DNA of 64,000 bases from Psammoneis japonica. Lineage: Eukaryota. Each line of letters begins with the position of its first letter. Position 1 is the first letter of the stretch. Below the pieces are notes generated by a model. It was not told the origin of the DNA. It saw only the letters and a list, made by a program, of their open reading frames with translations, and made no database searches. The position numbers were made by a program, and so were the translations under genes. The stretch covers positions 1 to 64,000 of the forward strand of contig QPGO01000085.1 in NCBI GenBank assembly GCA_008632985.1, in the 5' to 3' direction. Positions 1 through 30,902 of the stretch are shown piece by piece.

Positions 1-320
1 AGGCCAGTCGCAGGGACTTCACTCTTGCAATGTTGTCCAGTGCAACCGTCGGCACACTGACATCTACACCTGTCACCCCTTGATGCGCAACTCCCTCTGT
101 TCTGGCAAGGGTTGGGATCGCACGGGTTAGTCGCAGGGACTTCACTCTTGCAATGTTGTCCAGTGCAACTGTCGGCACACTGACATCTGTGCCTGTCACC
201 CCTTGACGCGCAACTCCCTCCATTCTGGCAAGGGTTGGGATCGCACGGGTTAGTGCCTTCCATGATGGTGGAAGCACCCGCGACAAAGGCGAGGACATTC
301 AGCAGACAAAGTTTCGTCAT
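1..320 (-). CDS. Secreted EGF-like repeat protein (5' part; runs off the window; carries TpA/CpG-type damage, possibly a pseudogene)
   Basis: My translation from ATG at 320: MTKLCLLNVLAFVAGASTIMEGT (signal-like), then NPCDPNPCQNGGSCASRGDRHRCQCADSCTGQHCKSEVPAT and NPCDPNPCQNRGSCASRGDRCRCQCADGCTGQHCKSEVPAT, matching EGF C-x4-C-x5-C-x8-C-x-C-x8-C spacing. Not listed in the ORF track because it is open to the window edge. Confidence 0.8.
   Translation of the reverse strand, partial: MTKLCLLNVLAFVAGASTIMEGTNPCDPNPCQNGGSCASRGDRHRCQCADSCTGQHCKSEVPATNPCDPNPCQNRGSCASRGDRCRCQCADGCTGQHCKSEVPATG
6..251. repeat. Two tandem 123-bp units (41 codons each) encoding the EGF repeats
   Basis: 6-128 and 129-251 align; the only differences are CG/TG, TACA/TGTG, TG/CG and TG/CA. 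Confidence 0.92.
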
Positions 321-1429: not shown

Positions 1430-3560
1430 CATGTGCTGCAGACAGCAGAAACTAATTTGGCAATGGACAAGCCTCCAAAAGGAGCCAGACTTGGTGTGCA
1501 CAAATGTCTGCTGGCTTGAGCTGAGTTTTTGCAAGCAGATGTTGAAAGATGAGGTGAGAAGTGTCCGTGCAAGATCAGTGCACTGGACAGGGCCAACCAC
1601 TCAGAATGAGTGGCACGCCATTGTCTCTCATCCCAAAAAAGGATCAAACAATGTGGTTTGTCAACAATTTTCACACAAGCCAAATGAGAAGATGCAAAGT
1701 GGTTGCCTTGCCCCTTGTTCCACCCCGCAGACTCAGGACACATGCTCGTAAAATTTGAGGGTTTTCAGCGGGCAATGTTGCTCAGCCTGAGTGTGAGCTG
1801 CCAGCTGCCACCACCACATGAAGCTTGGTGCTGCATTGCAAAAGCTTTGCACTTTAATTTTGGCAATGTGGACAAATTGTGAGATGCAATGCCTGCCAAC
1901 GGGCTTGCTCAACTCATCACAGAGGACGTTTTTAGGAGAAGATGTCTGGCTCATCTCAGGAGTTGTGTTTTGTGCACATGCACAAAGTCACTTGAGGTGC
2001 ACTGGACAATCATCTTGAGAAGGCAGATGCACCATGCTTGAAAAGCTGGAAGATGCTGAGCTCAAGGTCAGCACCTTAAAGCAGCTGTTCTGCCCAACAC
2101 ACTTGAAGCATGATCTCAGGCATGGGGTCACTCATGACAGCACTCAACACTTGAGGGAAAAGAGTGAGGCCACACAGCACATTGGTGAGCTGCTGCTGAG
2201 ATGTGTGGTTGCACACATGGGGAGACATTTCAGTGCCCCTTGCAAAACTTGCAGATGGGGCCTCCAAGCAGGAGCAGAAGAATTCCATTGAAAGAAAAGC
2301 TCTCCCAACCATCAAGTGAGTGACATCAGAAGATGCACTTCTTGCACATCCAGGTTTTAACAAACCATTTGAAATTTGCACACTGATGCACCTCAATGTC
2401 AACTCAGAGCAGCAGCATTTCAAGACAACAAACCTGTCACATTTTGCAGCAGAAAGCTTGTTGGTGGTGCTCAACTCAAACACACAACAATGCAATGAGA
2501 GCTGCTCACAATTTCTGAGCCTCTAAAAAATTCACATCTGGGCTGTTCTCCTTGGTCATCATGTTGTTGCTCCACACACTGATCACCAAAGCCTTGCGTG
2601 CATCACAAAGCATTCAATGCCAAGCACACCACACACCACTGGCACTTGACATGCAAAAAATGCAGCCCCAAGTTGGTCAGTCATCTCAACTTTGAACCAT
2701 CTTTGGACTTTGGGTGCAGCACAACAACTGCACAAACACTGCCTGAAGTGCATCATCCTCTGCACAAAAGGCCTTCATGAACAAAGTGAAAAAATTGTGA
2801 TGATTCCACCAGTTTGAACAAAAGCAGCAAGAGAATGAGTGCCTGTGTTGCGCACAATTTGAACTTCACACAACTGCTCTGCATGATCACTCCATGTTCT
2901 GTGGGGGAGAGAAATGTCAAACAAACAGAGTTGGCTCATTGTCGGAACAAAATTTGTGCTTCAGAGTCATTGCAGAGGCAATTGACTGAGTCGCACCATG
3001 TGCAATTGTGTTGTGCACAGGAGAGGCATGCACAGAAACTGCCATTGCCCAGCATTTCCACCACTGACACAGCGCAAGAGCTGTGGTGCACTCTGCATGC
3101 TCCAAATGCAACTGATGTCAGAGGACAAAAAGATGCAATGTCACAGATGTGGAAAGCACCCAGAAAAAGTGGCAGAAATTGTCATTTGGGAGACCATTTT
3201 TGCATGGAAATGATTGGAGAAAGTGCACCAGTCAAAAGCACAAAAAGAAGATTTGCACATTTGTGGGCAGCAGCTGTGGTTGATCCAGAGCAACTCTGGA
3301 CAGTTCAAAATCACCCAGCTGGCTGCCAAACATGCTGGCATTGCAGCAAATGTCATCATCAAGCAAACTTGGCCATGCAGATGTCCATGGCAAAGAATGG
3401 TCATCTTCAATCAAGGAACTGAGCACATGCCCCAATTTAGACAAATGGCTTCAGAACACTGTGGCCTCCAAAAGAAATCCACAAGCAAATGCAATCCACA
3501 AAGGTGGGTGCCACAGTGGAACATGCACGTCAGACAATTGGGAGTGTGATGCAGTCGTTC
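1430..3560 (+). mobile_element. Heavily decayed Ty3/gypsy pol remnant (RT-RNaseH-integrase order)
   Basis: Motif fragments across frames: LKDEV..., LIPKKDQTMWFVNNF (IIPKKDxTVRFISDF), CEMQCLPTGL (YEYQRLPMGL), LEDAELKVS (LQDAGLKVN), LLAHPGFNKPFEI (LLAYPDFNKPFEI), CGKHPEKVAEIVIWET, QTWPCRCPW..VIFNQGTE (QTWLxRYPW..IFDRGTE), RNPQANAI. Reference motifs are recalled, not searched. Confidence 0.75.
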
Positions 3561-4240
3561 TCAGCTTGAGACATTCTTGGCTCAAACAAAAACAACATGC
3601 AGAGTGGCACACTCTCCACAGTTCTTGCATTTGCCAAGCAAACTGAGGCTTGCTCATGCCGCCACATGTGCAAGCCCGATGCAAAACTGGTGCACAGCAG
3701 CAGAGATGTGTTGTTGAAAACAACATGCATCCAGCCAAGGCCCAAGTGGAAGCACACACAGGAGGACAGAAAGCTTGAGCTCATCTGTGTAAATGACAAA
3801 CAAAAAAATGACAAGAGATGAGACTGCCAATGTGCCACAGGGCAGTTGGCACTCATCAAACAAGAACAAAAACCTAAATGTGGGACTGGCTGGACAGTGG
3901 CCAGACATTGCATGTGGCCACCCTCTCGTTTTACCCAGAATCATCCTGTCATTTTGAGTGCCAGATGGGTGTCATCACGGTTCTTTGTTCGCCGTGTCGC
4001 GCACATGTGCTCTGCGGCTGTCATTCTAAATTACAGTTCAGGCTTCACACGGTCGCACCGGTTTGGTGGCAGCACCACTGCGCGGACAGAGTGGCCAAAG
4101 TAGATCAATCAACAGGAGAGACGGCATTGGGACGTGTTCTTCGCCTCTCAATGCCGCCCATGGAGCACTGACCCACCATGTAAAATTCTTTCCTCAGGAC
4201 TCTACTAGCTGATGTTCTTATTCTACCTTTAACTAAACTT

Positions 4241-9839: not shown

Positions 9840-10805
9840 GGTTGAGTTAATCAGCTTGGAGCTGCCCAAGACAATCCCTGCACCCTCATCTTCACAGACC
9901 AATTTGGGCATGAGCTCCCTGACCACCCTGACACCACTGAAGAAGACGACCATGACTCCCTGCATGATGACCCTGATGATGATGCATCCATGGACACTTC
10001 CTGGCCCAGCTGCACCATCAACAGCAGTGATCCCGATGGCAATGACAAGAAAGATGATGACCCCAGACTGCTGCCTCTCTCCCCCCTTGCCCCCCTGCAG
10101 AGGGGTGGATCTGCTGCCACCAGCAAACCAGCAAGCACAGGAGTGAGAGGCACCAACTGGGGCAGCATGACAAATGTGATGTGCCAGCGCAGGCATCAAG
10201 GAGGACACCAAAACATCTGTGGGCTCCAACTTCTGCATGATGCAGGCATGCAGATGCAAAACAAGACAAGAGACCAGCAGATCCAGTGCCAAGACAGCAG
10301 ACTGGTGCAAACAACAGATTGGTGCTGGACAATGACTCAAACTGTGTGTGTGAATCCCTCGCCCAACCTGAGGTCAAGCATGAGCTGGACTCCAGCAAAT
10401 GAAGATTTGGATGAAGATGAAAAAGATGACAAGGCAAAGGAGCAGATGCAGAGCTTGCCAAGCACATGGGTTGCATCTGCAGAACAAGAGACCACCACCC
10501 ACAAAAACCTTTGAAGTCAGAGAAAGGGGCACTGCAATGATCACACCACAACAAAGAGCTCCTGGGTTGGCAGCTGTGCTTCTCATTCTCAAATGCTTCA
10601 AAAACCTCATGGTGGAAATGCTGCTGCTCCTCACAGCACACATGTTGACAAAGATGAGCAGAGCCAGAAGGCACCCGGCCGGCAGAGCCAAGGCTGATGT
10701 GGTCATGAAGGAAATGATGCAACTGGACCACAGGGAAGTCACTCAACTGGCAGTCACCAATGACATCTCCAGGAAGCAAATGAAAAAAGCCAGATCCAAT
10801 TTTTA
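9840..10805 (+). mobile_element. Decayed Ty1/copia pol remnant (post-integrase linker to RT N-terminus)
   Basis: VNQLGAAQDNPCTLIFTDQFGHELPD, an acidic linker with TGV, and LTKMS...ADVVMKEMMQLDHREV...DISRKQMKKA resemble diatom copia pol as I recall it. It lies in a TpA-depleted domain. Confidence 0.5.
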
Positions 10806-11936
10806 AGTGCCGCTGCTCCTTTGCCAGCCACCAGCTAACTCACACTTCCAGCACACCAAACAAGTGTGGCAGAAAAGGGGGCAAGAACCAGCCGGGATGG
10901 GCGTCACCCAGAGAAGGCAACACTCCACCAAAACAACTGAAAGGAATGACTTGCACAAGGAATTTGTTGCATGCTTGTGGTCAGTGACAGCTGCAGAAGG
11001 CACACCACAACCACAAAGAACAATCGCACTCATCAGACTGGTTCTAAAAAAAGCCACAAAACATCTTGGAATGTGCCCTCGAAACTGGCACAAACTTGGG
11101 TCACAAGGCCACTCATTTGTGCACCAAGGAGAACTGCTGCACCACAACAAGAAGTTCGCCACTCAACACAGTTAGCTGGGACAGCTGACAAGCAAAGGAA
11201 AAATTGAACAGGACTTGTTGGATGTCTTGTGAGCTGGGAGCCTTGAAAGCAAGCAAGACTTCGTCGAAGCAAAAGCCCCACCACCTGCATGCAGAAACAA
11301 CAATGGTGCCAGATGTTGCACAGAAAAACACATTCACACTTGCAAGGGACACAACAGAGGTGGCACTTTCATCCCAAAAAGTGAAAGACTTGGCCAAACA
11401 AAGAGAAAAGATGCACTGTTGAAGACTGGGGCCGGTGGCTGACATGGACAGAAGTGGTCTGGAGATGTGTGACCAGTGGATCATTGGTGGCTGCAAGGAA
11501 ACCCATGCACAAATGAAAGAACACATGTCGTGCTTTGATTCCTGTCCCATTTGCATTCCTGTCATGTCACCAGCACAGTACAACGGTGGATTTTGTCATT
11601 GATGCACCGGGTGCGACACGCAAAACCGATGCCCCGCCCCATAACGCCGACGACCGACGACCCAATCAAATAGCTGCTTTGAAATATATTATGTTTCAAC
11701 ATACACGGTATCATGTAATGTGAATCGATGAAGTCGAGGGCACCGTGTAACCGTCGAGATCATATGATAAATATATAGATTCAATACAATAATTAAAAGT
11801 ATTTTTAAATAAATTCTGGCTAAACCTGTTTTGCATCCGGATAAGATAATACGTCACAAAAAGCTTTTAAAAGCGTGTATACAGTATTAGCAAAACCGTG
11901 GCGAGACGGGGCATCTCATTTTTGGTTTTTTTTGGT

Positions 11937-13611: not shown

Positions 13612-13849
13612 AACTGTTTGAAAGTCTATAGCCATCATTTTGCATATACAAAATAATAATGAACCCACATTCGTCGAATGTGTTCGCCGCAAGCATGACG
13701 AGTGTGTTGAAGGACACGACATGGACCGAATGAGAACAGAAGATGGTCGAGATGGAGGAATGGAGCGCACAATCCCTCGAGGAAGAAAAGATCTTGGCTG
13801 TTGACCGAAGGTTGCTGCCCTCAAGAAATTATCTCAAGGCAAGAAAATT

Positions 13850-15520
13850 GAACCCAAAGGAAAAGCAAAATCCAAGGGTCAGGGCAAAAGGTGGAAAAAG
13901 AAGAAAATGTGTGGCCTAAAACCTGGGTGGGTGGAGAAGGACGAGAGGCCCATGAATGACAAGCTTCACCAGCATTGCTGCTGGAACAACAAACTGTGTT
14001 GGTGTTTTCACCATGATGCAAGTGGAAAATTTGAAAGAAAGTGGCTAATCCACCGGCCATTTGTGTGCAAAGAACAAGTGCTCATCAGTCAAAAATTGGG
14101 ACAAGGCACTGGGAAACACTAAAAACATGGAGGCACCGAACAACAAGAAGGCGGACAACTCCAACACAAAGAAGCTCAAAAAGGATTTGAAGTCCCTCAG
14201 AAACTGTCCGAAACAAAATAAAACAAAACCCAAACTCTGCACTCAAGGTGCTGCTGCACTTCTGCCCTCACATGGCTCCAGCAACACAAGCCAGCCCGCA
14301 CCCCCAGTGCACAAACTGCCCCAGGAGCATGTGACAATTGGCTGAGACAAAACCTGCTGTGTGGCAGGAGCACATGACAATTGGCTGAGAAAGGGATCAC
14401 CAACACAGGTTGTGCCACACTGCCAAAGTGGCTGGCAACAGTGTGAGTGCCCTGGCAGCCAACAGCTGAGCTTCTTGAATGCTCGACTTCTTGAGCACAC
14501 AGGTCTCTCACACCACAGCCAACCAATGCAGCCACAGCTGATGCACAGAATGAGTGAGATGTTCATCAACATCCATGTCAAACAAATGCACCTCATTCTT
14601 TGCCAGACAGTCATGTCTGCTCATGAACAAATTACCTTGATTTCAGCTTTTTAGCATCCTGGCATTGAGCCAAGGAACTTCCCAGCCTTTGATTCACAGC
14701 AATTGACATCATCACATGAATCCTGCAGTTCCTCCTGCCGCTGAGACCAAATGAAGGGGAATGATGGCCCTCATCCTGGCTGTGTGATGCAATCCACTGA
14801 CCAGCAAATGTGACATCTGAGCCTCTTTCCACAAAAGAGATGACTGAGACAGGGGCTTGCAGGGTGTTGCACCACCCTAAGTGGCCTTTGACCAAGTGCA
14901 CTGTGGCAACAGCAGCACCAGGCTTGCCAGCTGTGGAAAATTCTGAGATTTGCTAGAAAAACTGAAACATCTCACATGAAATGCCCCACTCCAGAGACAA
15001 AGCATTGGCAACATGATGCCTGTGAAAGAAGTCAGCATCCACATCAAACAATGCTCCAGCACTGGGCCAGGGAGGGACAGAGTGCAAGTTGGGAACACTC
15101 TGAACCAGGGAAAAATTGTTGCAGTGCAAACAAAAACACCTGGCAAAAACACTCAGCCACAATGTTCCAGCACCCAAAACAGGCAGAAAACAAAGGAAAC
15201 AAAGAAGGCCACACAACAAGCTGTCCAAAGCTCTCATTGCTCTTGCAGACAAGCTCAACACCTTTGGCTCTAAACAGCTGGTGGAGCAAGATGTCAAGAA
15301 GACTGGCTGTCACTGGGGGGCATCCAAGGAGCCACCATTGTTGGTGTGGTGTTCATCTTTGCAATTTGGTGCACAGCTTCACTTGTGGTCTTGCTGCTTC
15401 CACCAAAGCAATTTGTGTGGACAACTGTGGACCATTTTGCGCGGAAGATGACAGATGGAAAATCTGAAAAATGGGCGCACCAAAGATTTCTGCTGTGCTT
15501 CTCCAGTGCATTTTAACACT
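13850..15520 (+). mobile_element. Very decayed LTR-retrotransposon-like remnants (gag C-terminus / protease-like fragments)
   Basis: Basic tract followed by KLCWCFHH...KWLIHRPFVC (gag-like W-C-x-x-H...H-x-P-x-x-C), and ICVDNC...EDD (protease-like). Similarity is weak and judged by eye. Confidence 0.35.
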
Positions 15521-16458
15521 CATCAATTTCAAGTGACAGCAGGCAGACACTGCTGCAAAGTCACAAAGCACACTCATCGAAGCTGTCTGCTGTTTTGGGC
15601 AAAGATCTGGAAAAATGTTTTGCTGTGTGTTGTTTTGCTTTCAATGAGTGTGTTGTTGACCTTGTTGGACACCGCCAATCTTCTTCACAAGCACAGCATT
15701 TTCTTGTGATGCAGGAAATTGTGGAAAATGCATGGAGCAGAAGGGGTGTGTTGGAGCTCTCAGCAAACAGGCCAATGTGACATGTCAGTGGCTGGAACTT
15801 GTCTTTTGCATGTGAAAAGCATGCATGACATGTTCGCATGATTCCCTTGAATGTGTCAGAGACACTGAATTGCACACAGCTTGGGTGGGATGATCTTTCA
15901 TGCACCCAATTTCATCTGTCTGTTTTCCAAACAAAATGGACTGTTGGACCTCTGCCATCACAGTTGTTCTCAAATGCATGATCTCACAGCATCAAGAGAC
16001 AATGTTCCTTGCCCTTGTCACCAGAATCTGAGCAACTCATTGTGGCAGCACACTTTCTTGAGAGAGTGCCAGCTCACTCAGGTTGTTGTCAGGAGTCACT
16101 TGTGGAGATTGGAGAAGCCTTTGTTTTAAAATCAAGTGCACTGCCCCCCCCCCCCCTAAAAAAAAGCACTTTCACTCGGGTGGGCAAAACAAAAATTTGG
16201 AGCCACTGTGTTGTGAACAAAGGCAGACACTGCCAACATTGAAAGGGCAAATGTCTGGGCCTGGTGTTTTTCAACTTCAGTGGTGCCAGAGTTGGCCTGG
16301 TGTTCTTCAACTTCAGCAGCAGCTCCAGAGCCCTGTTGTTTGCTTGTGCACAGGATCTGGTTCCTTGGGCCAATCCTCTTGAGTTTCCTCACTTGTGTTC
16401 ATCAGGTGCAGAACTTCAGGCGCTGCAGCACAGAGGTGCTTCTGCTTGGCACTGGTGC

Positions 16459-16958
16459 AAGAGTGAATCCATGCATGTTGTTGTTGTTGCTGTTGCCTCT
16501 TGGGCAATTGTCTGACCGACGACTCTTGCACCTGATTCTGAGCGATTCATTTGAGCACTGCAGTGCACTTTCTTGTTGAGAGCACGCTGCATTCAGGGCA
16601 CACTTGTGGAGAGTGGAGATGGTTGATTCTTGTGACAATGACACATTTTTCGGGTGGATTACGCTCGTGCCATTGCGTTGTGTACTGCCAACATCGAAGG
16701 GTGAAAGAGTGAATCCATGCATGTTGTTGTTGTTGTTCTCTGGTGTGTGTCTGACTGACAACTCTTGCACCTAATTCTGAGCGATTCATTCGAGCACTGT
16801 GGTGTACTTTCTTGAGAGGACGCCGTATTCAGGGTACACTTGTGGAGAGTGGAGACGGTCGATTCCTATGATAACGATAATATTTTTCGGGTGGATTACG
16901 CTAATTTTGTGCCATTGCGTTATGTACAAGGCAAAACACTACCAACATCGAAAGGGCG
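16459..16958. repeat. Two diverged tandem ~245-bp units (16459-16703, 16705-16958)
   Basis: Both begin AAGAGTGAATCCATGCATGTTGTTG and share CACTTGTGGAGAGTGGAGA, TTTTTCGGGTGGATTACGCT and CCAACATCGAA. Confidence 0.88.
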
Positions 16959-17189
16959 CAAGTAAGGGGGCCTAGGCAGGGTTCAGCAGCACTGCTGTCT
17001 GTACTGCCTTCAGCAGCCTGAAGCTTTCGATTCTTATGATAACGATAATATTTTTCGGGTGGATTACGCTAATTTTGTGCCATTGCGTTATGTACAAGGC
17101 AAACACTACCAACATCGAAAGGGCGCAAGTAAGGGGGCCTAGGGTTCAGCAGCACTGCTGTCTGTACTGCCTTCAGCAGCCTGAAGCTT
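16859..17189. repeat. Near-identical tandem duplication (16859-17026 / 17027-17189) covering the SIT stop codon and 3' UTR
   Basis: The copies differ by about one substitution and two small indels. Confidence 0.9.
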
Positions 17190-18721
17190 CTGTTTCTGGG
17201 CGTGCAAACCTGCTTTGCGCTCTTCAAGCTCCTTCATGTGTTCATCCATCTCGTCCTCTAGTGCTTCAATTTCATCGAGAGAGAGGTCATTGTAATTGAA
17301 ATCTTCGTTCTTTGGCAACAGTGGAACAGCAGGGTACAAATGGCCAGCCTCGACGCTTTCTTCTTCGTCTTCCTTTCCGCCCTTGCGCGCGGCACGTTCC
17401 TCGGCAGTGCCAATGTAAACTTCATCGCGCTTAAAGCCTCGGACCTTCTTGTCAATCTTGGCAAGGAACCATGCTCCAGAGCAAATACCGGTAGCTTCCA
17501 AAAATAGACAAATGCGGAGGAACAGGTAGGTGATGGGGTTTGACAAAAAGGCAATGGGAAAGGCTGACGCGACAAGCTGCCACGAGATGGATCCGAGAAT
17601 GGTTGTAATGGTGGCACCTAGGAAACCAGTTTCAAATAGTTCCTGGAGTCCATCGCTAACACCCCACAGGTTACCCTTGCCCTCGTCCATCGAGACAGTG
17701 GTGACACGAGAGATGATAAAGAAGCAAGACACGACACTGAGCTGACGGCCAATCATGAAATTGGGAAGGTTGTGTCCCCTGCCCTTGTAGAGGAGATCGC
17801 AAGTCATCTTGGCACACTTGGCTTTTCCACGCTCGTCCTTGGTAAGCTTGGCGACGGCAAAGAAGCAATCTGCATACCTTCGAGCATACCAACGACAGAC
17901 ATGAGGAGGAAGAACAGAATCACGGCAACTGCCTCGGGAACACCGTCCCACATGGTGGTTTGTCCTTGGAACAGAGCAGATAGGGTGACTGCCAAGGCAA
18001 AGCCGAGGACGACAAACGAGACAAGGACACGGAACCAGAAGAAAAGATTTTGGCCGGTGCTGCGCGGAGGCTCCTTGGATTCGATGGGCTTGCCAGCAAG
18101 GTATCCAACACAAATCTGGATAAAGTAGGAGAAGTGCATGAGACCAGTGAATTCAATCGCCCTGGCAGTGTAGAGCGTGAAGAGGTTTGCATAATCGTTG
18201 AAGTAGTCAAGCATACAGAGCGATGCGTTGACCTGCGATTGCAACTGTCCAACTTGTGCCGTAAAGAGGATCATGGCAAATCCGGTGACAAGGAAGATGT
18301 CGACAATCCACTTGGGCAATCCCCAGAGTTCAGCACCTTCGATAGGGGCTCCACACTTGTTGATGAGGAAAACGATAAAGATGACCATGAACTGACGGCC
18401 CATCAGGTAGCGATCGAGGTTGTCTCCCTGTTGGGTCATGGCATTGCCCTTGTAAGCGATCGGGTGGGTGTCCTTGTAGAGCTCACGGTCAATCGGGTGA
18501 AGACCGACCAACGAAGCCTGTCCGCCCTCGACGAACGAGAGCCAAATCAACATCACCCAAAGGATAATAAAGGCAAGAGCAGGATGGTATTGCTCGGACC
18601 ACGCCGTCTGCCTCGTGAAGATCAAGCCCATCACGATCACCAACGAGAAGACCAGGAGAACGGTCGAGTAGAACATCTTGAAGATGCTGAGAGCTTTGTG
18701 CAAGTCTGATTTCTCACTCAT
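17139..18721 (-). CDS. SIT: Silicon transporter (SIT); one-base frameshift at ~17863
   Basis: Four GXQ motifs (EGGQ, MGRQ, EGMQ, IGRQ), CMLD motif, many TM segments and a C-terminal coiled coil. Adding one T restores EGMQIAFFAVAKL across ORFs 17804-18745 and 17139-18113. Confidence 0.95.
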
Positions 18722-19587
18722 GGTTGAATAGGATTTTTGAGTCAATCAGCTAAACAAGAGGCAAGAGACAGCAAAACTAGTGAGCGAATCAGCTACACAA
18801 GAGGCACGATCGCCTTCACACGAGTGGCGCCATGGTCGATACAAGAAACTTACAAGTTTGCTTTTATGTTTTGGTTGAACGACGACAACGAGTTGACCGA
18901 AACAAGGAAAAGTGAGAAGAAAAAGTGCGGGAGACGCATCGATAGCCGATCGCTCAATTTTCGGTGGCCTGTCATTTTTTCTACGCAAAACGGCGTATGT
19001 AGACTTGGTACAAGCCCTACGAGGGATTTGGACATGGCAGCGAACACCATTGACATTCTATTTAAGAGTGACGGTTAACAAGAATGAATTGTGTGTACGG
19101 TATGTCGATAGTGTGTGTACCGGTACATATACTGTAGTAAGGCCCAACAGTACAGTACAGTACCGGAGACAGTCGCAGCAAAAGAGCAAAAGAAACGTAC
19201 GAAGAAAAACAATATAAAACAAAATAATAACATATATAAACAAATAATGAAACCCCATAAAGTACTGTACCTTAAATAATGGTAACTCGATCTGGTAACG
19301 GTAAATTTTTAATATGTTTATAGGGTGATACATGCTGAAATTAAAAATCACTGTGAAAATTATGAGCTGATGTGCGACATCGTTAGCCTTCAGAAGGCTC
19401 AAACGTCAGCGTGACCATGGCGTGACCAACTTTCTCGAAATGATTTCAGTCGGACACAACACCTTGAACTGAATCGACAAGCGGACAAGCAAAGATGACA
19501 ATCTGAGAGTGCGAGATGAAAATCTCGAGCGAAGCATCTTGCTTTTTTGCTTGCTGACCCCAACCTCCCGCTCATCCCAACATCAAA

Positions 19588-19863
19588 TGACAGGATTTGA
19601 ACAGGATTTGGGTGCGCGTGAAGTGTCGCGCGCTGTTTAGTTTGCCGCGCACAGTTTTGTGTGCTTCAGTTCTGCGCGTTCGCGCGCGATGTAGTTTGCT
19701 TTCGAGCCACAAGGCTCACAAGAATGACAACAGCAGCCCGATCATGCCGACCCACACGTCTTTCGGCTCCTGCAACGGTCTCTGAGCGGAGACTCATCTG
19801 CCATTTAGACAGCAGCAAGGAGTCATTGTTTGAATTCTTGCCATTTGCCTTCAATTTCTGTCA
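19588..19863 (+). repeat. 5' LTR (276 bp)
   Basis: Aligns to 26408-26682 with 13 substitutions and 1 indel by my count. Confidence 0.95.
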
Positions 19864-20803
19864 GACCAACAGTCTTGCTCATTGTCAACCCACTGAGCAA
19901 CCGCCATCGTCGTCGTTGATTTGCCAACGACGCCATTTCAATTCTGCGTAGGACCTCCGCACACACTCTACATACATCGGCAAGTCCACGCGCATTCAAT
20001 GCCAGGGCATCGGCAGGAAGTTAACGTCACCGTCAAGTCTCCTTGCTGCTGGATGTCTGGATTGATTGTGCCACCTTTGATCGCTGAAGACACACATTCA
20101 ACGGTCATGTCCAAGTCTGTCCTTGATCCTCATCCCTTGACATGCCTGTTCATCGGTCAACGGTCAAGAACCCTGCATGTTCAAGGATCTTCGTCGCTGA
20201 AGACATGTGCATGTGTGCACATCTTCACGGCCAAGAACCTGCACCTGCTCTTCGGACTGCGGTTTTGCTGCCACTCTGCAAGCACACCGAGTCCATTGCA
20301 CCTGATCTGCCCCGGACTGCTGGTGCTCTGCAGTTCCACTGGGTCCACGAGGACGACTGTGAGAGCAAGCAGCCGTGATTGCAGCTTGCGTTGGGGCGAG
20401 GGTGCTTTCCCGCGTTTGTTCGTTCGTCCACAGCGCCCAACGCCTGCGTCAACTGGCCAGCCTGATCGGGAAATCCAACCGACATAAAACAAGAACGGTT
20501 CGGGGGTCTTGTCCACCTCTGGTCAGCTCACCTGCAGGGGTTTACAACCCGCCACTCCGCTCGTAAGCAACCCAAAGCGCCGCCAGCTGCGGGTTCGGAC
20601 GTGCCGGCACAACTCTACGGACCGGACAGGAAGTCCAGCACTTGACAACGAACGGGACAGCAAAGCCCGGCGACTTCTGATTTTAAGATAGATCAAGATT
20701 TCAAGTCAAGTCTGTTTCAAGTCAAGTCCATTCTCACCCAAGCTTCAAGCCTGCCTTCGCTTCCCAACAAGAATTGCTTGTCCTGACACCACTTTTGTCC
20801 ACC

Positions 20804-23800
20804 ATGGTTCTCACTCGTCAGCAACAAACCGATGGTTTCGAGCACGTTGTTGGAACCGTGCTTGCCCAAGGCGCTGGGAGCCCTCTTCGTTTGGCTTTGG
20901 CCCAAGACGGCACAGACTCGCATCAAGAACTGTTCACATTCATGCCGTCCCAAATCGACTCGCTTGAGTGCGACAACGGCACCAATGTGATCCCTTTGCC
21001 CCGTGGTCATAAGAACATGTCAGCAGCTCTGGTTGGTCTGTACATTGTCAAAGCACACAAAGGTCTTGACGTTGCCAATGACTCCTCGTTGTTCACGCAT
21101 GACGAGTTCCTTGCCCACTGCCTCAGCCCCGATTGCATGTCTTCTGTGTCCATCGGCAGCTCACCCCTCGCACCTCCGCATGTCACCAACCCGTCCAAGG
21201 CACGCGACCCGGTGCGGGACTTCAAGCGAGGCATCAAGCATGATCCCACCGCTTTCACGGCTCTCAAATCCGACAAGCAGTGGCACACTTGTGGCACAAG
21301 CCCGTGCCCAAGACGTCGAGTGCATTCTAGACTCGTCGTACAAACCGACCAGCCCCAAAGACAAACTGCTCTTTGCTGAACAGCAAAAGTGCATGTTCGC
21401 CATCTTCGAACGCATCCTTCTCACCGACAAGGGCAAGGCTCTCATCCGCGAAAATGTGGGGTCTTCTGACGCCCAGACCGTCTGCCGCGCCTTGTCTGAG
21501 CACGCGCTCGCCTCCACCCGCGCATCTGTCGAGTCCTCCACCTTGCCAACGCACCTTGCCACCGCACGTCTTGGTGATGGTGCTTGGAAAGGTCCAACCC
21601 ACGGGTTCATCCTTCATTGGCAAGATCAGTTGCACAAGTGCGAGGCACTCATCCCGGCCAGTGACCACTTCTCTGAAGGACAGAAGCGCGTCATGCTCGA
21701 GAATGCCGCACACCCTGTCGAGGAACTCCGTGCTGTCAAGAACCAAGCTGATCAGCATCGTACGCAGAGTGGCAAGAGCCTCACATACGATCAACACTGT
21801 GGCTTGCTCCTCTCCACGGCAGCTCAGTGCAACAGTGCGTTTCAACCCAAGACGACACCTCGCGCTCCCCGACGCGCCACACACGCACACGACGTCTGCT
21901 CCGAGGAACCCTCCGATGATGTGTTCTACGACATTGACAGCGACATTGACGTCCTTCAGGCCAATGCTGCCTGCACCCGCGGTCCCAGCCTCACCGGTGA
22001 CCAATGGAAACGTCTCCCTCCCGACCACCAACGGATCTGGGATTCGTTGCCCAATTCCTCCAAGGCGATCATCCTTGAGCATTCTCGTCCGCCTCCCCGC
22101 AACCCGCGAGCCAGCAACTGCCATGAGTCTGTTACGGCCAACCTTCACGACCAACGCCTTGGGAGTGACGGTGATGTCAACTTGTCCAACACGACTCCTG
22201 CTGACTCTGGTGACTCCGCTCCAAATGTGGACGCCACTTCGGACAATCCCATCCTGGCGCACCTCACCAAGCACAAGCCACTGCCACCCGGTGATCTGCA
22301 ACGTCTGTTGTCTCCTAACCAAGCCCCCAACGCCAGTTGACCGGGGCCATCCGCCGCTCCCTCTACCCCGCCAGCTTCTGCCGATGACATGGAACTTAAC
22401 GGCCGCACTTGCCGCCGCGTTGACAACCACAATGTCATTTGCTCTGCCTCTGCTCATCGCTCCACACGCACTGGTGCCCCAGTCGATCGTGGGGCCAACG
22501 GCGGCATTGCTGGCGACGACGTTCGCGTCATTGCACGCACCTCTCGCCAAGTCGACGTTCAGGGCATTGACGATCATCAATTGGTGGACATCCCCATTGT
22601 CACCGCTGGTGCCGTCATTGAGACCCAGCGTGGTCCCGTCATCGCCATCCTCCATCAGTGCGCATGCACGGGCAAGGGCAAGACCATCCATTCCTGCGGC
22701 CAGCTCGAATGGTACAAACAGGATGTCAACGATCGCTCTGTCAAGGTGCCCAACGGCTTGCAACGCATTGCCACTCCTGATGGCTATGTCATCCCCATTG
22801 ACATCAAGGCTGGCCTGCCTTGTGTTGCCATGCGACCTTACACTGACGCCGAATGGGACACCCTGCCCCATGTCATCCTCACCGGTGATGACACATGGGA
22901 CCCTTCCGTCCTCGATCACTCTGTCACTGACGATGACCAGTGGTGCGACGCGATCTCTGACCTGCAGGACGATCCCACTGCCAACCCATTTGACGAATGC
23001 GGCAACTACCGTCATCGTGTCGTTGTCAACGAGACCATCATGTCCGCTTCCTTGTCTGCCGATCACGCGTCCGCCCTCGATGATCACCTCATTCCGAACG
23101 ACGACGTGTTCTGCGAGTGTCATCTACACGCGATTGACCCCAAGGGCGACGACGTTCCGCCTCCGGAGCGCACTGTACAGCCCAAGGACCCCCCCTTCGA
23201 GTCTCTTCGGCCTTGCTTTGGCTTCCTGCCTGCCGATGCGGTCCGTCGTGCTTTTGACTGCACCACGCAGTGCGCCCGCATGCCCGCTGGTACACACCTT
23301 AGGAAGGCCTGCAAATCACCCAACCCCGCCCTTAATGTGCACCGCCGCAACGAGCCTGTCGCCACTGACACCGTTTGTGCCGACACCCCGGCCGTCGACT
23401 CTGGTTGCACCAGCGCCCAACTGTTTGTTGGCACCGAGTCTACCGTCACTGATGTCTGTGGCACCAAGACGGACAAAGAGTTTGTCAACACACTCGAGGA
23501 TCAGATCCGTGAACGTGGTGCCCCATCCAAACTCATTGGCGACCGTGCTCAAGTTGAGATCAGCAACAAAGTGCTCGGGATCCTACGCGCCCTCTTCATC
23601 TCCAGCTGGCAAAGTGAGCCTCACCAGCAACACCAAAACTTTGCCGAGCGTCGACACCAGACCGTGAAGCGCATGGCGAACACTGTCATGGACCGTTTTG
23701 GTTTGCCCGCCCACACATGGCTGCTGGCGCTCATGCATGTGTGCTTCATGCTCAACCATGCAGCGTCCCCACGGTCTCCACTGGCGCATGCCCCTCGAGA

Positions 23801-26386
23801 CTCTCACTGGCTCCACCCCGGACATCAGCCCATTGCTTCGCTTTCACTGGTGGGAACCCGTGTGCTTCCACCTCGATGACTCTGATTGGCCATCCGAATC
23901 CCGTGAGTTGCGTGGACACTTCGTTGGCATTGCTGAGCACGTCGGCCACCAGATGACCTTCAAGATTCTCTCTGACGAGACTCAGAAGATCCTCTGCCGG
24001 TCCAACGTCCGCTCCGCTGCCACCGATCCTGCCGTTCGAAACCTGCATCTTGATCCTCCTGATGGGGAGCCACCTGAACCCATCATCAAATCTCGCCATG
24101 ACGACAACCCCGTCGATTCTCCTGATGGGGAGATCAGGACACCCAAGATGCCAGTTTTCGATCCGCAAGACATCATTGGACGTACCTTCCTCATGCAGCC
24201 ACAAGAGGACGGACAACGCCACAGAGCTCGCATCGTCAAGGCCGTCGAAGACCACGAATGGAAAGTGAACGGCAATCCCGAGCTCACTGAGTTCGTCTGC
24301 TCTGTCAACAATGACGAATGCGAGGAAGTCCTTGCCTGCAATGACATCATGAATCACATTGAGCAAGAAGACGAAGACACCACTGTTTGGAAATTTCGAC
24401 GCATCGTGTCACACGAAGGACCTCTGAAGCCTCACGACCCAACCTGGAAAGGCTCAAGCTACAACATCATGCTTGAATGGGAAAGTGGGGAGATCACGTC
24501 CGAGCCTCTTGCCATCATCGCCAAGGACGACCCCGTCACCTGCACCATCTATGCACGAGAGAACGGACTCCTCGACACGGATGGCTGGAAGCGGTTCCGC
24601 ACCATCGCGAGGCGCCAAAAGAAGCCATTTCGCATGGCCAACCAAGCCAAGCTTCGCTCCTTCCGCACTGCACCTCGCTGCAAGTGCGGATGCGAAGTTC
24701 CCCAGAACTGCAAACACGCCATGTCACTGGGACGAACGCAACGGCAACCGCAAATGGGGAGACGCAACTAATCTCGAGATGGACCAACTCGACGAATACG
24801 AAGTCTTCCATGACTGCGGGCCCTTCGAGTCTTCCACTCCTCCTGCGGGACACAAGAAGATCCGAGTGCACCTGGTGTGCGACGTGAAGCACGACGGTCG
24901 CCACAAGGCACGACTCGTAGCCGACGGGCACCTCACGGATGTGCCTGTCGATGGTGTCTGCTCCGGAGCAGTCTCCCTCCGTGGCCTTCGGCTGATGATT
25001 TTCCTGGCCGAACTCAACGAGTTAGAGACATGGGCCACCGACATTGGCAGTGCCTGCCTTGAAGCCACCACCAAGGAGAAACTTTACATTGCAGCCGGAC
25101 CCGAATTTGGCAAACTCGAAGGACACATCCTTGCAATCCACAAGGCACTGCATGGACTGCGCAGCTCCGGTCTCCGCTGGCACGAGCGCTTCGCCGACTG
25201 CCTGCGAGCTGAAGGCTTCTTCCCCTGCCGCGCCGAACCCGACATTTGGATGCGCAGGAACGGCGACCACTGTGAATGCATTGCCATTTATGTGGATGAC
25301 CTCGCCATTGCCATGAAGGACCCTCAATCTTTCGTCGACACTCTCACGGAAAAGTGCAAGTTCAAGCTCAAGGGTGCGGGACCCATTGAGTTCCATCTGG
25401 GTTGCAACTTTTCCCGGGATCCCGACGGAACCTTGTGCCTGTCTCCGTGCAAGTACATCGAGCGCATGGTCGACAGCTGCGCCCGACTGTTTGGGGAGAA
25501 ACCTGCCACCAACGCCCTGTCACCTCTGGAGAAGGGTGACCACCCCGAACTGGACACTTCTGAACTGCTGGGACCCGATGGCATTCACAAGTTCCAGTCT
25601 CTTGTTGGTTCACTCCAATGGGCAGTGTCCCTTGGTCGAATTGACATTGCCACGGCCGTCATGTCACTCTCTAGCTTCCGAGCTGCGCCCCGGCAAGGCC
25701 ACTTGGATCGTGCCAAACGCGTCTGTGGGCACCTCTCCAAGATGCGACACGGTGCTCTCTGCGTTCGCACGGAAGAGCCCGACCATTCGGATCTCCCTGC
25801 TCCGGCCTATGAATGGATGCATTCGGTGCACGGCGAGGCAGAAGAGATGATCCCGAAGGACGCTCCACCGCCCCTTGGCAAGTGTGTCACCACCACCCAC
25901 TACGTCGATGCAAACTTGCACCATTGCATGCTCACCGGACGCTCTGTCATGGGAATGCTCCACTTCCTCAACAAATTCCCGGCTGATTGGTTCTCTAAGA
26001 AGCAAGCCACTGTGGAGACTGCGACCTGCGGGTCTGAATTTGTTGCCGCAAGGACTTGTGTTGAGCAGATTGTCGACCTGCGCATCACCCTGCGCCACCT
26101 TGGCGTCCCGATCCGCAGTGTCAGTCACATGTTCGGTGACAACAAGTCGTTGTAGACAGTGCCACCATCCCGCACTCCAAGTTACACAAACGACACACCG
26201 CACTGTCTTTCCACCGTGTGCGTGAGGCAATTGCCTCTGGTTGCCTTGAGCTCCACTTCATCGAAGGCTCCCGCAACCCTGCTGACATTCTCAGCAAGCA
26301 TTGGGGTTGCTCCCAAATCTGGGACCTTCTCTGCCCCCCCATGTTCTGGAACTTCATTCCATCCGAAGTCGAATCTGTTTCTGTGA
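20804..26386 (+). pseudogene. copia gag-pol, several frameshifts and systematic Tyr-to-Cys/His changes
   Basis: Gag FKRGIKHD; protease VDRGANGGIAG; integrase EPVATDTVCADTPA and SEPHQQHQNFAERR; RT DVKHDGRHKARLVA and YVDD; RNaseH GSEFVAAR, FGDN and NPADILSKHWG. Confidence 0.93.
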
Positions 26387-26407
26387 CTCCTCAAGCAAAC
26401 TGGGGAG

Positions 26408-26682
26408 TGACAGGATTTGAACAGGATTTGGGTGCGCGCGAAGCATCGCGTGCTGTTTAGTTTACCGCGCACAGTTTTGTGTGCTTTAGTTCCGCGCGTT
26501 CGCACGCGATGTAGTTTGCTTTCGAGCCACAAGGCTCACAAGAATGACAACAGCGGCCCGATTGTGCCGACCCACACGTCTTTCGGCTCCTGCAACGGTT
26601 CTGAGCGGAGACTCATCTGCCATTTAGACAGCAGCAAGGAGTTGTTGTTTGAATTCTTGCCATTTGCCTTCAATTTCTGTCA
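26408..26682 (+). repeat. 3' LTR (275 bp)
   Basis: Matches the 5' LTR; preceded by the PPT and followed by the TSD. Confidence 0.95.
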
Positions 26683-28127
26683 TCAAACCCAACAACTCCA
26701 TGACCCATGATGATGAGTGCAAGCAGCCAACTCAAAGTGAAGTGGCGCCAGGAGCAGCACCACAAAAAATGAACAAAAGAGGTGTTGTCCAAAAAGAAGA
26801 GCCACACCTTAACCCTTGCTGAAGAATGCAACAGCGCCAATGCATTGTCAGCTTGTGACTAAGTGCATTCTTCACACTCTTGGCAATTTTGTTTCTCCTT
26901 CTTGCACTCATCTCTTGCAGCAGCACTTCCGCCGCTCTGTTGCCTTTTTGCACTTCTGAGTTGTTTTTTTTTCTGCCAAATCACCTTTTTTTTGCTGCCG
27001 GCCCCGCCACCAAGAATGGTGGGCACACGACACATAAAGTGGCAGCCATGCTAACTTGACAAGCACAACTCAGACTCAGCACGAATTCACCGTTGGTGCA
27101 CTGCAGCCGCCGGGAACTGCGGAAACCACCTCGCCACATGGCGACTCTGTGGTTGCCATTTTCTCAATGGCGTTGCCTTCAAGAGCCACAACAATCAACA
27201 GTGTGTCACATCTCCTGAACTTGTGTGCAGCAAAATGTTGACACATGAGAGTGCAACATGCTTGTTGTTGACTCACATGTGATCAAAAAGCGATGGGCAG
27301 AAAAGTGAACAATGCAGCTGTTTTTGCTTCGATGAATCAACTTCAAAGCACAGTGAGGCACCATGTGCATTTGAAATGAATTAGGAGCTGTCGATGTGTG
27401 GCAGCATCATGGTGAGTTCATGGTTTTTGATGAAGTGCACTGCATTTGCAGTCCCCATTGTCATTGCGTTTTGACAAGTCGCGGAAAATTTGAGGTGTCA
27501 AACACACGTGTTTGTCAAAGGTGCGTCATTCTTCCAGCACACAGGTTTTTCACATTCCACATTCTGATGTGTGCAGAGCATTCACATTTTTGAGATGTTG
27601 CAACTTCATTGAATGATGTCACACAAGCATTGATTGCATGTTGCAAAATGCACGCAGGTCCAAACACACATCAGGCTTGCCGCCAGCAAAAAAAAAGAAC
27701 GTTTTAGCAAGAAAAAAGGGCGGGTTTGTGCTTTGGCACAGTCAACGCCACAAACTGGCTGCTGCTGGATTGTGTTCTTGCTGCATTGCCGTGCTCTTCA
27801 TTTGTGTTTTTTTGCAGAAAAAATGCAAAATTTTGGAAAAACCTGAGTTTTGAGAAGACCTGGTTGAACATGAGAAGAAGATGGGTGCTGGGCACAAGAT
27901 GCGTCACTGGCTCTCCTTTGCTCCTTCCTGGCTGGCTTGACTTTGCAATGCTCTCGGACATCCTTTTCAATTTTCCAGAAGCACTTGTTTCCATTGTCAC
28001 ATGCAGCCACTTGGGCACACATTTGAACATGTCATCAAGATCTGCTTGAGTTGGCTCAAAGCCTGGATTGATGAAGAGGAGCTGCTGTGGCAGGCACCAT
28101 CAGCCACCATGCGAACCCAGCACTTTT

Positions 28128-30902
28128 TGACAGACATCCGAGATGGGGAGTGCACTCCATGATCATCATCTGCCCTGGATGTCCATTAGATTGTCCCAAT
28201 GCCACCAGTCCGCAAGGTCATGAGCAGCAGTGAGCTGTTCCTCTTCCTCTGCACTCCTTTGTTGCAACACCCATTGTGCGATTTGGCGATTTTTCTTCGT
28301 TGAAATCGTCATCATTGTCACAGCTGTTTTTTCACCTCTTGATCTGTGATCAAACGACCACTGCAGAACACATGCCAGAGCTCTGCACAGGAATTTGATT
28401 TTTTTCCCACGCAACCATGGTGAACAAAGCCCCAAACGCCATCGATTTGACCAAGATCAAGTCGGCACTGGTTGAATTCAAACCGCACAATCGCCTGCCC
28501 GATGCACATCGTCACCTGAATGACCTTCATTCCGACGTGATGCCTGCTCCTGAAGATCTTCTGGACGGATTTACTCCTCAAGGCCTCAAGAGCGACGCTG
28601 TCACTGTTCTCCATCATGAGATTGTTCAGAACCTTGTCATTCCCCAAGCTGCGCTGACTGAAGATCTTGCACGAATCAGGCCAATCTTTGAAAAGGCCCC
28701 TCTCTTTGTGGCCACCCCTCAAGGCTCCCCGGTTCGTCTGAACCTCAGCACTCTTCAGAACGCTGTGGTCGAAGTGATCACAGAGAATCACAGTGCCACA
28801 AAGGCACATGTTGGTGCTTTGCGTTTTCATTTTCGTCCTGGTTTTCAATCTCATGATTGTTGGGATGATGCATCTGATGCTCCTTTCCCAGATTCCTCTT
28901 CTGCTCCAAGTTCTTCACCTCGGCCGGCTGCCACTGCAGGTGCCACTCCTGGAGACCTTGCCAAGGCCTCAGCCACTCATTCACCTGGTCCAAAACAGTT
29001 TGAGCAAGCTGTGACTAACGCGTTGAAGAGTGTTTGTCCTCCTGCTGAAGATTCAAACATGACTCTGCCTCCGACTGGTGTTCCACACAATGCCCATCCT
29101 AAAGGACTTCTTGAGGATGTGCCAGCTTGTGGCCAACAGGACACTTCCCCTTCCGGCAACACTCACGGATGCGGGAAAGCTGTTGTGCTTCCCACTGCAT
29201 CTGTGACCTGTCCTTCGCACTCTCATGGATTTAAGGCATCCAAGCTGGGCCCAGTTGCTGGGTCTACTGCATGTGACACTGATGCCACTGTTGCATCTCA
29301 TGTCACAGGTGCACTCGCTGTGGACACTCGGATGGATCCTTCGGGTGCTAATTCCTTGACCATCAAGTCTGCTGTGTCTGTTGTGGAATCCATTGGCAAG
29401 CCATCTGCAGTTTTGTTGATGCTGGATCCCTCGAACTTCCTGCCGAATCGATGGTGCTTCCTGCCGACGTCCACTCCTGCCAGCTTGGGACCCCGAAGTT
29501 TTTTGTTTCTGGCTGTTCTGCTGTTCCATGCAAAGATGGTCACATTTCGCCTCAAGGATGGACTGCCCTCTCTTGCCAAGGTTACACCCAAGCTGCTTGC
29601 CACCTGCGTGCCGCCGTCATCTGATGCTTGCGGCTGCTGCCAGTGCTCTGTTGGTTGTCAAGTTGATTTGCACTCAGATTTTTGGTTCGGCCGTCGTTGA
29701 TTTCAGATGTGCGATGCCGCCGTTCCTTCCATTGTCCAAACAAGACCAACAGAAGCAGGGCAGTTGTGAAAGAGGGCCATGGCGTCTCACTGCCTTCTGC
29801 CACTCCATCTCTTTCCTCCCTTGTCAGGACTGTTGTCGTGTCTAAAAGTGCTTTTCATGGTGCTCCGGACCCATCCACAATCGCTGATGATGATCCTTCA
29901 TTTTCTGATCAAGGGAGGGAGCAATGTTGTGCAGAGGAAGTGTGCAAGGTTGACAACCACACCAACTCTTCCAGTGTGTCGCCTCTTTCCTTTGCTGTCA
30001 AGACCGTTGTTGTGTCGAATGGCATTTTTCCTGGTGCTCCCCACCCATCGACCATCCCCGATGATGACCCTGCATTTGTTGATCAGGGGAAGGATTTCTG
30101 CAATGCAGAGGAAGCATGTCAGGCTGTTGAGCATCATGCTTTCCACCAAGACACCTTGCTTCATGATCACGTTTTGAACGCCGCGCGATTCTCACCTCCG
30201 ACACATCACTGTTCTTCCGACGTTGAGCGACTTTATGATGCATTTTGTTTGCCCAATGTGTTTTTCAGGGGTGACACAAATGGTGGTGGAAATGTTGGTT
30301 TGTCAGGTGGATTGCTGTTGCTTCATTTTCACCGCATCATTCGCCATGGTGGATTTCCATTTTTTTGGCCCCATCTCTTCCGATGATTTTTGGCGACAGG
30401 ATGACTCACCAGAATGTCCCGTTGCGGTCGATCATTTGTGGATTGACAAAATTCTTCCATGGTGCACGACTCCATTCATCCAAAAGATTTGTTGGGAACT
30501 GCCTTTGACATTTTTTGTCGAAGACCGATGCGTTGAGTGCGGGATGGATGTTTTCTTCCCGACATGCTCGACGCTTGATGGGATGTTGTCGTTGGTTGTC
30601 ATCATGTTTGCGGACCAAGTCTTGGCCATTTCTTTTGGTTCTTTCTCTTTGTTCCTGCTGTTCTGGTCCTCTCTTTTTATTTGGATCGTCTCTTTCTTTC
30701 TTGTTGAGCATTGCATTGCTCATCAGGGGAGGGCAACAGACATCCGAGATGGGGAGCACACTCCCTTGTGTTGGACAGACTGGCACAGACAGCATGGAGA
30801 CATCCGATGATCTCTCCTTTGCTCACTTTCTTTCTCATCTAGCACACGATTGTCATCTGTCCCAGACATCTGTTAGATTGTCCCGATGCCGCCAGTCTGT
30901 AA
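28128..30902 (+). mobile_element. Putative non-autonomous element: decayed direct repeats (28128-28215; 30734-30902) around unknown ORFs 28417-29700 and 29682-30386
   Basis: Shared ACAGACATCCGAGATGGGGAG..CACTCC and TTAGATTGTCCC.ATGCC.CCAGTC. A purine tract AGGGGAGGG (30725-30733) directly precedes the second copy. Confidence 0.5.
29810..30130 (+). repeat. Two in-frame ~174-bp (58 aa) coding repeats
   Basis: LSSLVRTVVVSKSAFHGAPDPSTIADDDPSFSDQGREQCCAEEVC versus LSFAVKTVVVSNGIFPGAPHPSTIPDDDPAFVDQGKDFCNAEEAC. Confidence 0.8.

Follow-up and report, generated by a model that had tools for sequence, protein, structure and literature searches.

Hypermutation directed at the TpA dinucleotide was recently described in the chlorarachniophyte Bigelowiella natans. 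According to the main text of the preprint (Mettrop et al., bioRxiv 10.64898/2026.01.13.699255), 231 of 302 de novo mutations in mutation-accumulation lines fell in two integrated viral regions, the de novo rate in such blocks was elevated about 1000-fold, and 230 of the 231 mutations were A>G or T>C changes, all on TpA. Windows poor in TpA and rich in CpA and TpG clustered genome-wide and were enriched in open reading frames (ORFs) for reverse transcriptases and transposases. An ADAT2-like protein was proposed as the agent, and DNA deamination by amphioxus BjADAT2 and Trypanosoma TbADAT2 was cited in this context. Our full-text literature searches returned no report of TpA-specific hypermutation or of TA-free domains in diatoms. 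Here, we describe a similar footprint in 64,000 nt of Psammoneis japonica DNA (assembly GCA_008632985.1, contig QPGO01000085.1, positions 1 to 64,000 of the forward strand; hereafter, the window). The key locus is a head-to-tail tandem array in the 3′ flank of a silicon transporter (SIT) gene, in which an inner copy (unit A) lies in a domain nearly devoid of TA and an outer copy (unit B) adjoins it. Our preferred reading, to which we assign a probability of roughly 0.8, is that unit A was mutated in place, after the A/B duplication, by a context-specific hypermutation of TpA to TpG or CpA that sweeps silent intergenic and transposon blocks.

The array was defined by a repeat search and alignments (Tandem Repeats Finder missed it, returning for the window seven rows of microsatellites only and no period near 240). 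Its units and the adjacent gene are as follows.

16454..16699, unit A (inner copy), converted; 2 TA, 9 CG, 36 TG and 20 CA
16700..16960, unit B (outer copy), unconverted; 13 TA and 12 CG, with 11 of the TAs in the susceptible T-A-Y / R-T-A context described below
16859-17026 and 17027-17194, recent 168-bp tandem duplication, its two halves one substitution and two indels apart
17027-17138, partial copy C, within the 168-bp duplication
16000..16262, copy0, an older unit well inside the depleted domain that aligns weakly, in three blocks at 65-85% identity; 2 TA and 1 CG
17139..18745, minus strand, SIT gene (PF03842), normal TA content, frame split near 17864

Alignment of A and B covered 234 positions, of which 208 were identical and 26 different, one of the latter at a ragged end. 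An earlier, sequence-only reading of this DNA had quoted a number of these differences, and all of them are present where it placed them. TA in B was matched by TG or CA in A at nine clean sites (A coordinates 16534, 16566, 16590, 16599, 16632, 16636, 16644, 16680 and 16687) and the reverse was never observed (binomial 9:0, p=0.004), which bears out what that reading had noticed; a tenth such site lies at an indel (16642). The other differences included five sites with CG in B and TG in A (16552, 16588, 16620, 16624 and 16639), three with CG in A and TG or CA in B (16517, 16521 and 16666), one CA-versus-TG double at 16561-2 and four transversions. The five CG>TG changes in A were all C>T on the plus strand, with no G>A, a sample too small for a strand-bias call. 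These differences lie in a non-coding 3′ flank, and the view that they are mutational and not selective is supported, as had been argued before. TA density of unit B (13 per 261 bp) equalled that of normal DNA in the window (1719 per 42.3 kb), and that of unit A was the density of the depleted domain, which provides one line of evidence for the direction of change.

Depleted domains were delimited by per-500-bp observed/expected (o/e) dinucleotide ratios together with lists of TA positions. Nearly TA-free blocks occupied 1-4000, 9849-11578, approximately 13810-16690 and 19385-32007, with a weaker block at 59969-60860, altogether about one third of the window. Over all six affected blocks, TA o/e was 0.05-0.17 and TG/CA o/e 1.35-2.24, and in the genes between them TA o/e was about 0.4-0.8. 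Four relic domains (13.3 kb) had TA o/e of 0.05-0.07, CG o/e of 0.11-0.48, and TG and CA o/e of 1.6-2.2; the corresponding values were 0.58 for TA and 1.00 for CG in the remaining 42.3 kb of the window. In D1-D3, low CG (o/e 0.11-0.26) was accompanied by an excess of TG and CA.

1..4000, D1, depleted domain; TA o/e 0.07, CG 0.26
9849..11578, D2, depleted domain; TA o/e 0.05, CG 0.15 (statistics on 10001-11500)
13810..16690, D3, depleted domain between two convergent genes; TA o/e 0.07, CG 0.11, TG 1.94, CA 1.71 (statistics on 14000-16450)
26687..32007, D5, older depleted domain; TA o/e 0.06, CG 0.48
59969..60860, D6, weaker depleted block; TA o/e 0.16, CG 0.74 (on 60001-61000)

Survival of TA relative to normal DNA depended strongly on the flanking bases (R, purine; Y, pyrimidine), being 0.006 for RTAY, 0.041 for RTAR, 0.072 for YTAY and 0.41 for YTAR. 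Thirty-eight of the 54 surviving TAs were in the YTAR context, versus 295 of 1719 in normal DNA (Fisher p=5e-17), and the excess persisted against non-ORF normal DNA alone (p=5e-15). The bias was present in each of the four relic blocks (12/19, 4/4, 9/11 and 13/20 by manual count). All 16 tetranucleotides were fitted by a two-strand multiplicative model, in which each strand has its own chance of mutation, set by the base that follows the adenine; per-strand survival was 0.80 for TAA, 0.50 for TAG, 0.12 for TAC and 0.05 for TAT. The target is the A in 5′-T-A-Y-3′ on either strand or, equivalently, the T in R-T-A. Because the rule operates on two strands, the flanking bases decide whether TG or CA results. 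When the A/B conversions were tabulated by context, a check that the sequence-only reading had proposed, nine of ten fitted the rule, including which strand had changed as judged from the TG or CA outcome (manual reading of the alignment). The A/B differences are thus tied to the process that made the domains.

An independent polarity was provided by a transposable element in the largest block.

19588..26681, plus strand, Copia-type long terminal repeat (LTR) retrotransposon; LTRs at 19588-19863 and 26408-26681; RVT_2 at 24473-26155

The element is flanked at both ends by a 5-bp target duplication (TCAAA), its LTRs are 95% identical, and it has TA o/e of 0.17, CG o/e of 0.90 and a GC content of 57% versus 47%. 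Its reverse transcriptase (RT)/RNase H ORF was aligned with 80 of 120 listed homologues (the first 80 by id) and differed at 58 of 343 conserved columns. At the 21 columns with consensus Tyr, the window ORF had Cys in six, His in six, Tyr in four, Phe in two, Ala in two and a gap in one, while none of the 22 columns with consensus Cys or His had Tyr (12:0, p=0.0005). The mean number of Cys or His at Tyr columns was 0.375 per homologue among the 80, and the catalytic YVDD motif was retained in the window ORF. Since Tyr codons are TAY, replacement of Tyr by Cys or His corresponds to TA>TG/CA, rooted by the family consensus. Two homologues (P0080, 64% identical, and P0043, 67%) had 11 and 7 Cys or His residues at Tyr columns, in columns other than those of the window copy, so that the same footprint recurs independently in other public assemblies.

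The two LTRs differed at 14 positions, all within Y-R dinucleotides (p about 1e-4), and three of these were TG-versus-CA doubles. Such doubles imply a TA or CG ancestor that was mutated once in each copy. They were also found at 98-99 in a repeat of D1, at 16561-2 between A and B, and twice in D2 between the assembly and a contig from sequencing run X1 (one of three runs, X1, X2 and X3, on one sample of one study). The D1 repeat is a 126-bp tandem repeat (6-254, 94% identity) whose copies, the first bases excepted, differed only inside Y-R dinucleotides (CG/TG at 47, TACA/TGTG at 66-68, TG/CG at 84 and TG/CA at 98-99). In addition, an X2 contig of a SIT paralogue has a 24-letter loose end with TA at two sites where B, but not A, has TA, although this is a weak alignment made by eye. 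Taken together, the T-A-Y survival rule, the 12:0 ratio against homologues and the doubles between once-identical copies give good support to TA -> TG/CA as the probable direction of change in the inner copy.

The direction proposed in the sequence-only reading was therefore right, but it does not follow from the partial copy on which that reading had relied. Copy C does carry the TA state (9 TA in the 101 nt of 17027-17127). However, it is an approximately 99% copy of the tail of B, produced by a duplication much younger than that of A and B, so that its TA state is uninformative on direction. As the sister of B, arising from the 168-bp duplication, it was rejected as an outgroup; copy0 was rejected as well, because it lies inside the depleted domain and can be aligned in blocks only. 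The last ~16 codons of SIT are also present twice, the duplicate being at 16978-17026 inside the 168-bp duplication, and tblastn matched SIT residues 306-324 to 17035-16979.

The border of D3 falls within the array and could be followed site by site. Up to 16644, every B-type TA of unit A has been converted; between 16660 and 16687 two TAs are retained and two converted; and in unit B from 16805 on, 11 susceptible TAs are retained.

16645..16805, transition zone; first retained TA/CG of A at 16651-16666, last converted TA at 16687, first susceptible unconverted TA of B at 16805

Conversion ends in a step no wider than ~160 bp, about the length of a nucleosome, rather than in the gradient over a few hundred bp that had been suggested, and CG retention in unit A is not monotonic (retained at 16517, 16520 and 16543, five lost in 16552-16639, five retained in 16651-16695). 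Other domain edges in the window were equally abrupt. Units B and C, which are nearest to the SIT stop codon, are unconverted; blocks reach to within ~200-450 bp of the 3′ ends of neighbouring ORFs and to ~640 bp upstream of the start of SIT; and contigs from run X2 lie on gene bodies only and stop at 13584, left of D3. From these positions we infer that transcription units probably set the domain borders. To the left of the Copia element, 24 TAs were found in 19200-19384 (185 bp) and none in 19385-19587 (203 bp), implying that the element inserted just inside an older depleted block made up of 19385-19587 and D5.

A 21-nt word is identical in A (16645-16665), B (16882-16902) and C (17050-17070) despite containing a susceptible T-A-C and two CGs, and its copy in unit A stands where the transition zone begins. 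Its conservation may reflect constraint on the 3′ untranslated region or simply a position outside the domain. Metagenome contigs scanned for exact matches contained the word at two loci (L001 2501-2521 and L002 2147-2167), which were taken as chance matches. These contigs share only the word with the window, have GC of 0.26-0.41, normal TA content and no SIT match, and the word sits in an apparently conserved coding stretch common to both of them.

Sequencing reads supported the interior of the domain. Run X1 contained 80% of the sampled words of 13000-19000, and its k-mer contigs had a word depth of ~60; run X3 contributed no contigs, and no RNA run was listed as containing this sequence. 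One contig of 2,272 nt reproduced 13186-15457 with 0 differences, another covering 15476-16156 had 1 difference from the assembly, and a third covering 9500-11781 had 9 substitutions and 7 gaps. Support over the copies themselves, whose correct assembly the sequence-only reading had made a condition, consisted of depth (77.5 and 127 in the X1 bins over the duplicate), pieces for 16157-16889 not being among those listed. Two X1 joints with a short side of 21 (16734 to 16890 and 16734 to 17071) are probably repeat effects. Within D2 (10220-10629), the only covering X1 contig (depth 61.6) differed from the assembly by TG>CA, TG>CG, CG>TG, CA>TG and one CC>TC change; five of the six events were within the CG/TA/TG/CA set, two of them TG/CA doubles. 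Haplotype or strain variation may account for these differences, which suggest recent activity of the process. The X1 bins 14176-14509 and 15178-15511 in D3 had depths of 202 and 235, versus ~60-70 elsewhere.

We propose that a process rewrites TpA to TpG or CpA across whole silent intergenic and transposon blocks, targeting the A of 5′-T-A-Y-3′ on either strand. The agent would be a TadA/ADAT2-like polynucleotide adenine deaminase with DNA as its substrate, converting A to inosine, which is read as G. The natural substrate of TadA is U-A-C in an anticodon loop, which matches T-A-Y. Such a deaminase would be directed to silenced chromatin, with its limit set by the neighbouring transcription unit. 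Loss of CpG in the older blocks may have a different cause, a slower decay of methylated CpG, since in the young LTR element TA is depleted and CG is not. A bolder version of the proposal is tentative, and we consider the odds to be somewhat against it: the process may be a diatom "anti-RIP" defence (RIP, repeat-induced point mutation of fungi) shared with chlorarachniophytes and possibly ancient in the stramenopile-alveolate-rhizarian (SAR) group, in which a TadA/ADAT2-like deaminase would read 5′-T-A-Y on both strands, erase TpA, together with Tyr codons and TAA/TAG, from silent chromatin, and stop within about one nucleosome of the nearest transcription unit, rewriting also any host DNA on the silent side of that border.

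Several observations weigh against our preferred reading. The comparison of A, B and C is unrooted, copy C being the sister of B, and there is no true outgroup for the duplicate. CG differences between A and B have no direction (5:3, p=0.73); the claim that CG of the outer copy became TG in the inner one rested on a selective choice of sites and left the three opposite ones unmentioned. The conversion at 16534 (C-TA-A) breaks the T-A-Y rule, and two of the three LTR doubles are in a YTAY context, which is not predicted for a TA ancestor, a CG ancestor being possible. The LTR element retains many TACs and 56 TAs in all; this may reflect selection on Tyr codons in an element that was once active. 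The Pfam content of D3 gives no clue to its origin: a search of 93 relic-domain ORFs (at least 80 aa) gave no real match, the only hits being Chromo_shadow (17 bits) and EGF, either sub-threshold or chance matches of Cys-rich sequence. The coincidence of the edge with the A/B junction, within ~100 bp, is unexplained. Finally, X1 may be the very sample used for the assembly.

A serious but on balance unlikely alternative accepts the same chemistry and differs in how the domain is chosen, namely by sequence (a repeat, foreign DNA or small-RNA homology), so that unit A would be short-range leakage from an element on its left, much as fungal RIP leaks into single-copy flanks. The abruptness of all domain edges in the window, which resemble insertion borders, fits this idea, as do the extra X1 depth in parts of D3, which implies relatives elsewhere in the genome, and the fact that the LTR element is a bona fide repeat. 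However, D3 has no recognizable element content and no similarity to other domains (none of the six self-matches of the window joins two domains), and the host sequence flanking the LTR on its left (203 bp) is TA-free as well, although this is better read as part of the older block. The duplicate itself is of limited help here. Since only unit A changed, a process obliged to hit both members of a duplicate is excluded at this locus, and to that extent the earlier argument against pairing-triggered mutation of both copies stands. Fungal RIP, however, is triggered by duplications longer than ~245 bp, and as the present units are only about that long, the unconverted state of B says little against homology-triggered targeting of a larger domain with leakage.

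Other readings replace the chemistry or the polarity. The true change could be T>C, made at R-T-A by a thymine-modifying enzyme (JBP/TET-like oxidation to 5-hydroxymethyl- or 5-formyl-uracil) whose product mispairs with G. R-T-A is the exact complement of T-A-Y, the two being inseparable by sequence alone, and 5-formyluracil is mutagenic towards T>C. We nevertheless regard this reading as improbable: no such modification or enzyme was seen here, and adenine deamination is what the authors of the sole experimental precedent discuss in its main text (10.64898/2026.01.13.699255). The joint loss of CG and TA in D1-D3 would be expected if TA loss were a by-product of CpG methylation, through error-prone patch repair by a polymerase-eta-like enzyme (A>G at W-A, where W is A or T) after deamination of 5-methylcytosine. 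Polymerase eta does prefer W-A, but a 3′-pyrimidine rule is not among its known features. The LTR element lost TA and retained CG, and the changes are almost all transitions (12 Cys/His versus 2 Phe at Tyr columns), so that this origin appears quite improbable. Some long-read data show A>G and C>T miscalls at modified bases, and an assembly or base-calling artefact might therefore mimic the pattern; alternatively, RNA editing could have been fixed by retro-insertion of the whole block, given that ADAR-type editing prefers a 5′ U (10.64898/2026.01.13.699255). Clean X1 contigs imply accurate reads and make miscalls unlikely, and the Tyr>Cys/His loads of P0080 and P0043 arose independently. Unit A is in tandem register with B and so was not retro-inserted, and the 3′ preference observed here is Y, whereas ADARs prefer a 3′ G. 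Both versions are accordingly very improbable. Scarcely credible, lastly, is the reverse polarity, in which TG/CA would be ancestral and the TA and CG of B and C derived, for instance through a RIP-like C>T change at CpA. The unrooted A/B/C comparison taken alone would permit it, but B rather than A has the TA density of normal DNA, C>T cannot turn TG into CG, every outgroup-rooted change in the neighbouring element is TA>TG/CA, and the doubles require a TA or CG ancestor.

As to the origin of the targets, one block is the Copia LTR element, unit A is host 3′-flank DNA, and the four relic blocks had no real Pfam match in 93 ORFs. D3 as a hypermutated SIT pseudogene was rejected, as neither SIT ORF had a tblastn match in 14000-16450. 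At 16145-16166 in D3, 13 consecutive Cs are followed by TA and 8 As, and this TA is one of the few survivors of the domain, in the resistant C-TA-A context. Because TA loss takes TAA and TAG with it, long overlapping ORFs fill both strands of the LTR element (over 19921-26230) and of the relic blocks (e.g., 598 aa at 21327-23123 on the minus strand, with no Pfam match); another five ORFs of the element likewise had no Pfam match. The SIT frame is split into two ORFs that overlap in 17804-18113, one at 18745-17804 (PF03842 E 8e-125, profile positions 4-290) and the other at 18113-17139 (E 1e-76, profile positions 281-493). SIT-paralogue contigs in X1 and X2 have one extra G behind 17864, so this SIT copy is either a frameshifted pseudogene or contains a one-base assembly error. 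Other long uninterrupted ORFs encode ordinary eukaryotic housekeeping proteins (TPR, PPR, RbfA, glycosyltransferase and pyridine-nucleotide oxidoreductase), and the window is probably nuclear DNA.

If our reading is correct, TpA-directed hypermutation would not be peculiar to one chlorarachniophyte and would be a major shaper of diatom genomes. The A/B duplicate would then represent a before-and-after pair in neutral DNA, and the window would make the enzyme specificity (T-A-Y) testable and put the width of the border at ~160 bp or less, open to test as well. There are also practical consequences. Long spurious ORFs in the blocks may mislead gene finders, and parallel, context-determined changes would hide divergence between LTRs, making LTR-based insertion dates too young.

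Several known systems resemble this process in part. Fungal RIP is likewise a defence-like, dinucleotide-specific transition hypermutation that inactivates transposon ORFs and may leak into adjacent host DNA; however, RIP changes C>T at CpA and enriches TpA, whereas here TpA is erased and GC rises, as in the 57% versus 47% of the LTR element. RIP also mutates both copies, whereas here only A was changed and B and C keep 13 and 9 TAs, a weak test with units of ~245 bp. Decay of methylated CpG could account for the CG depletion with TG/CA excess in D1-D3, and five CG>TG changes occur in A against three sites the other way, but it cannot remove TA, and the LTR element lost TA and not CG. Animal deaminases (ADAR, A>I; APOBEC, C>U) share the context-specific transition hypermutation of selfish elements, and a T or U 5′ of the edited A. 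In contrast to ADAR, the present process changes chromosomal DNA in situ, hits both strands and favours a 3′ Y (TAG survival 0.50 versus 0.12 for TAC and 0.05 for TAT), and implies no ADAR-type gene. The ADAT2/TadA family would be the candidate enzyme class; some members deaminate C in DNA and could in principle link TA and CG loss.

The closest likeness is to B. natans, as described in the main text of the preprint (10.64898/2026.01.13.699255): transitions at TpA only, giving TpG or CpA by strand, in discrete blocks with TpA depletion and CpA and TpG enrichment. That organism is a chlorarachniophyte, whereas the present DNA is from an SIT-bearing, probably diatom genome, and Rho was 0.45 for a nucleocytoplasmic large DNA virus (NCLDV) region there versus nearly saturated o/e values of 0.05-0.07 here. 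The targets in B. natans are integrated viral regions with a measured de novo rate; here, a host tandem-repeat unit is affected, and the process is known from its sequence footprint. The T-A-Y rule and step edges are features of the window, and the terms trinucleotide, context, flanking, boundary and diatoms do not occur in the preprint's main text. CpG was also lost in the older blocks (CG o/e 0.11-0.48), a G:C>A:T component that is read as a separate process, and "CpG" occurs 0 times in that text. The present case therefore appears, on these similarities, to belong with the recently described TpA hypermutation, to which it would add a further lineage, nearly saturated depletion, the T-A-Y rule, a border of measured width, affected host DNA and superimposed CpG loss.

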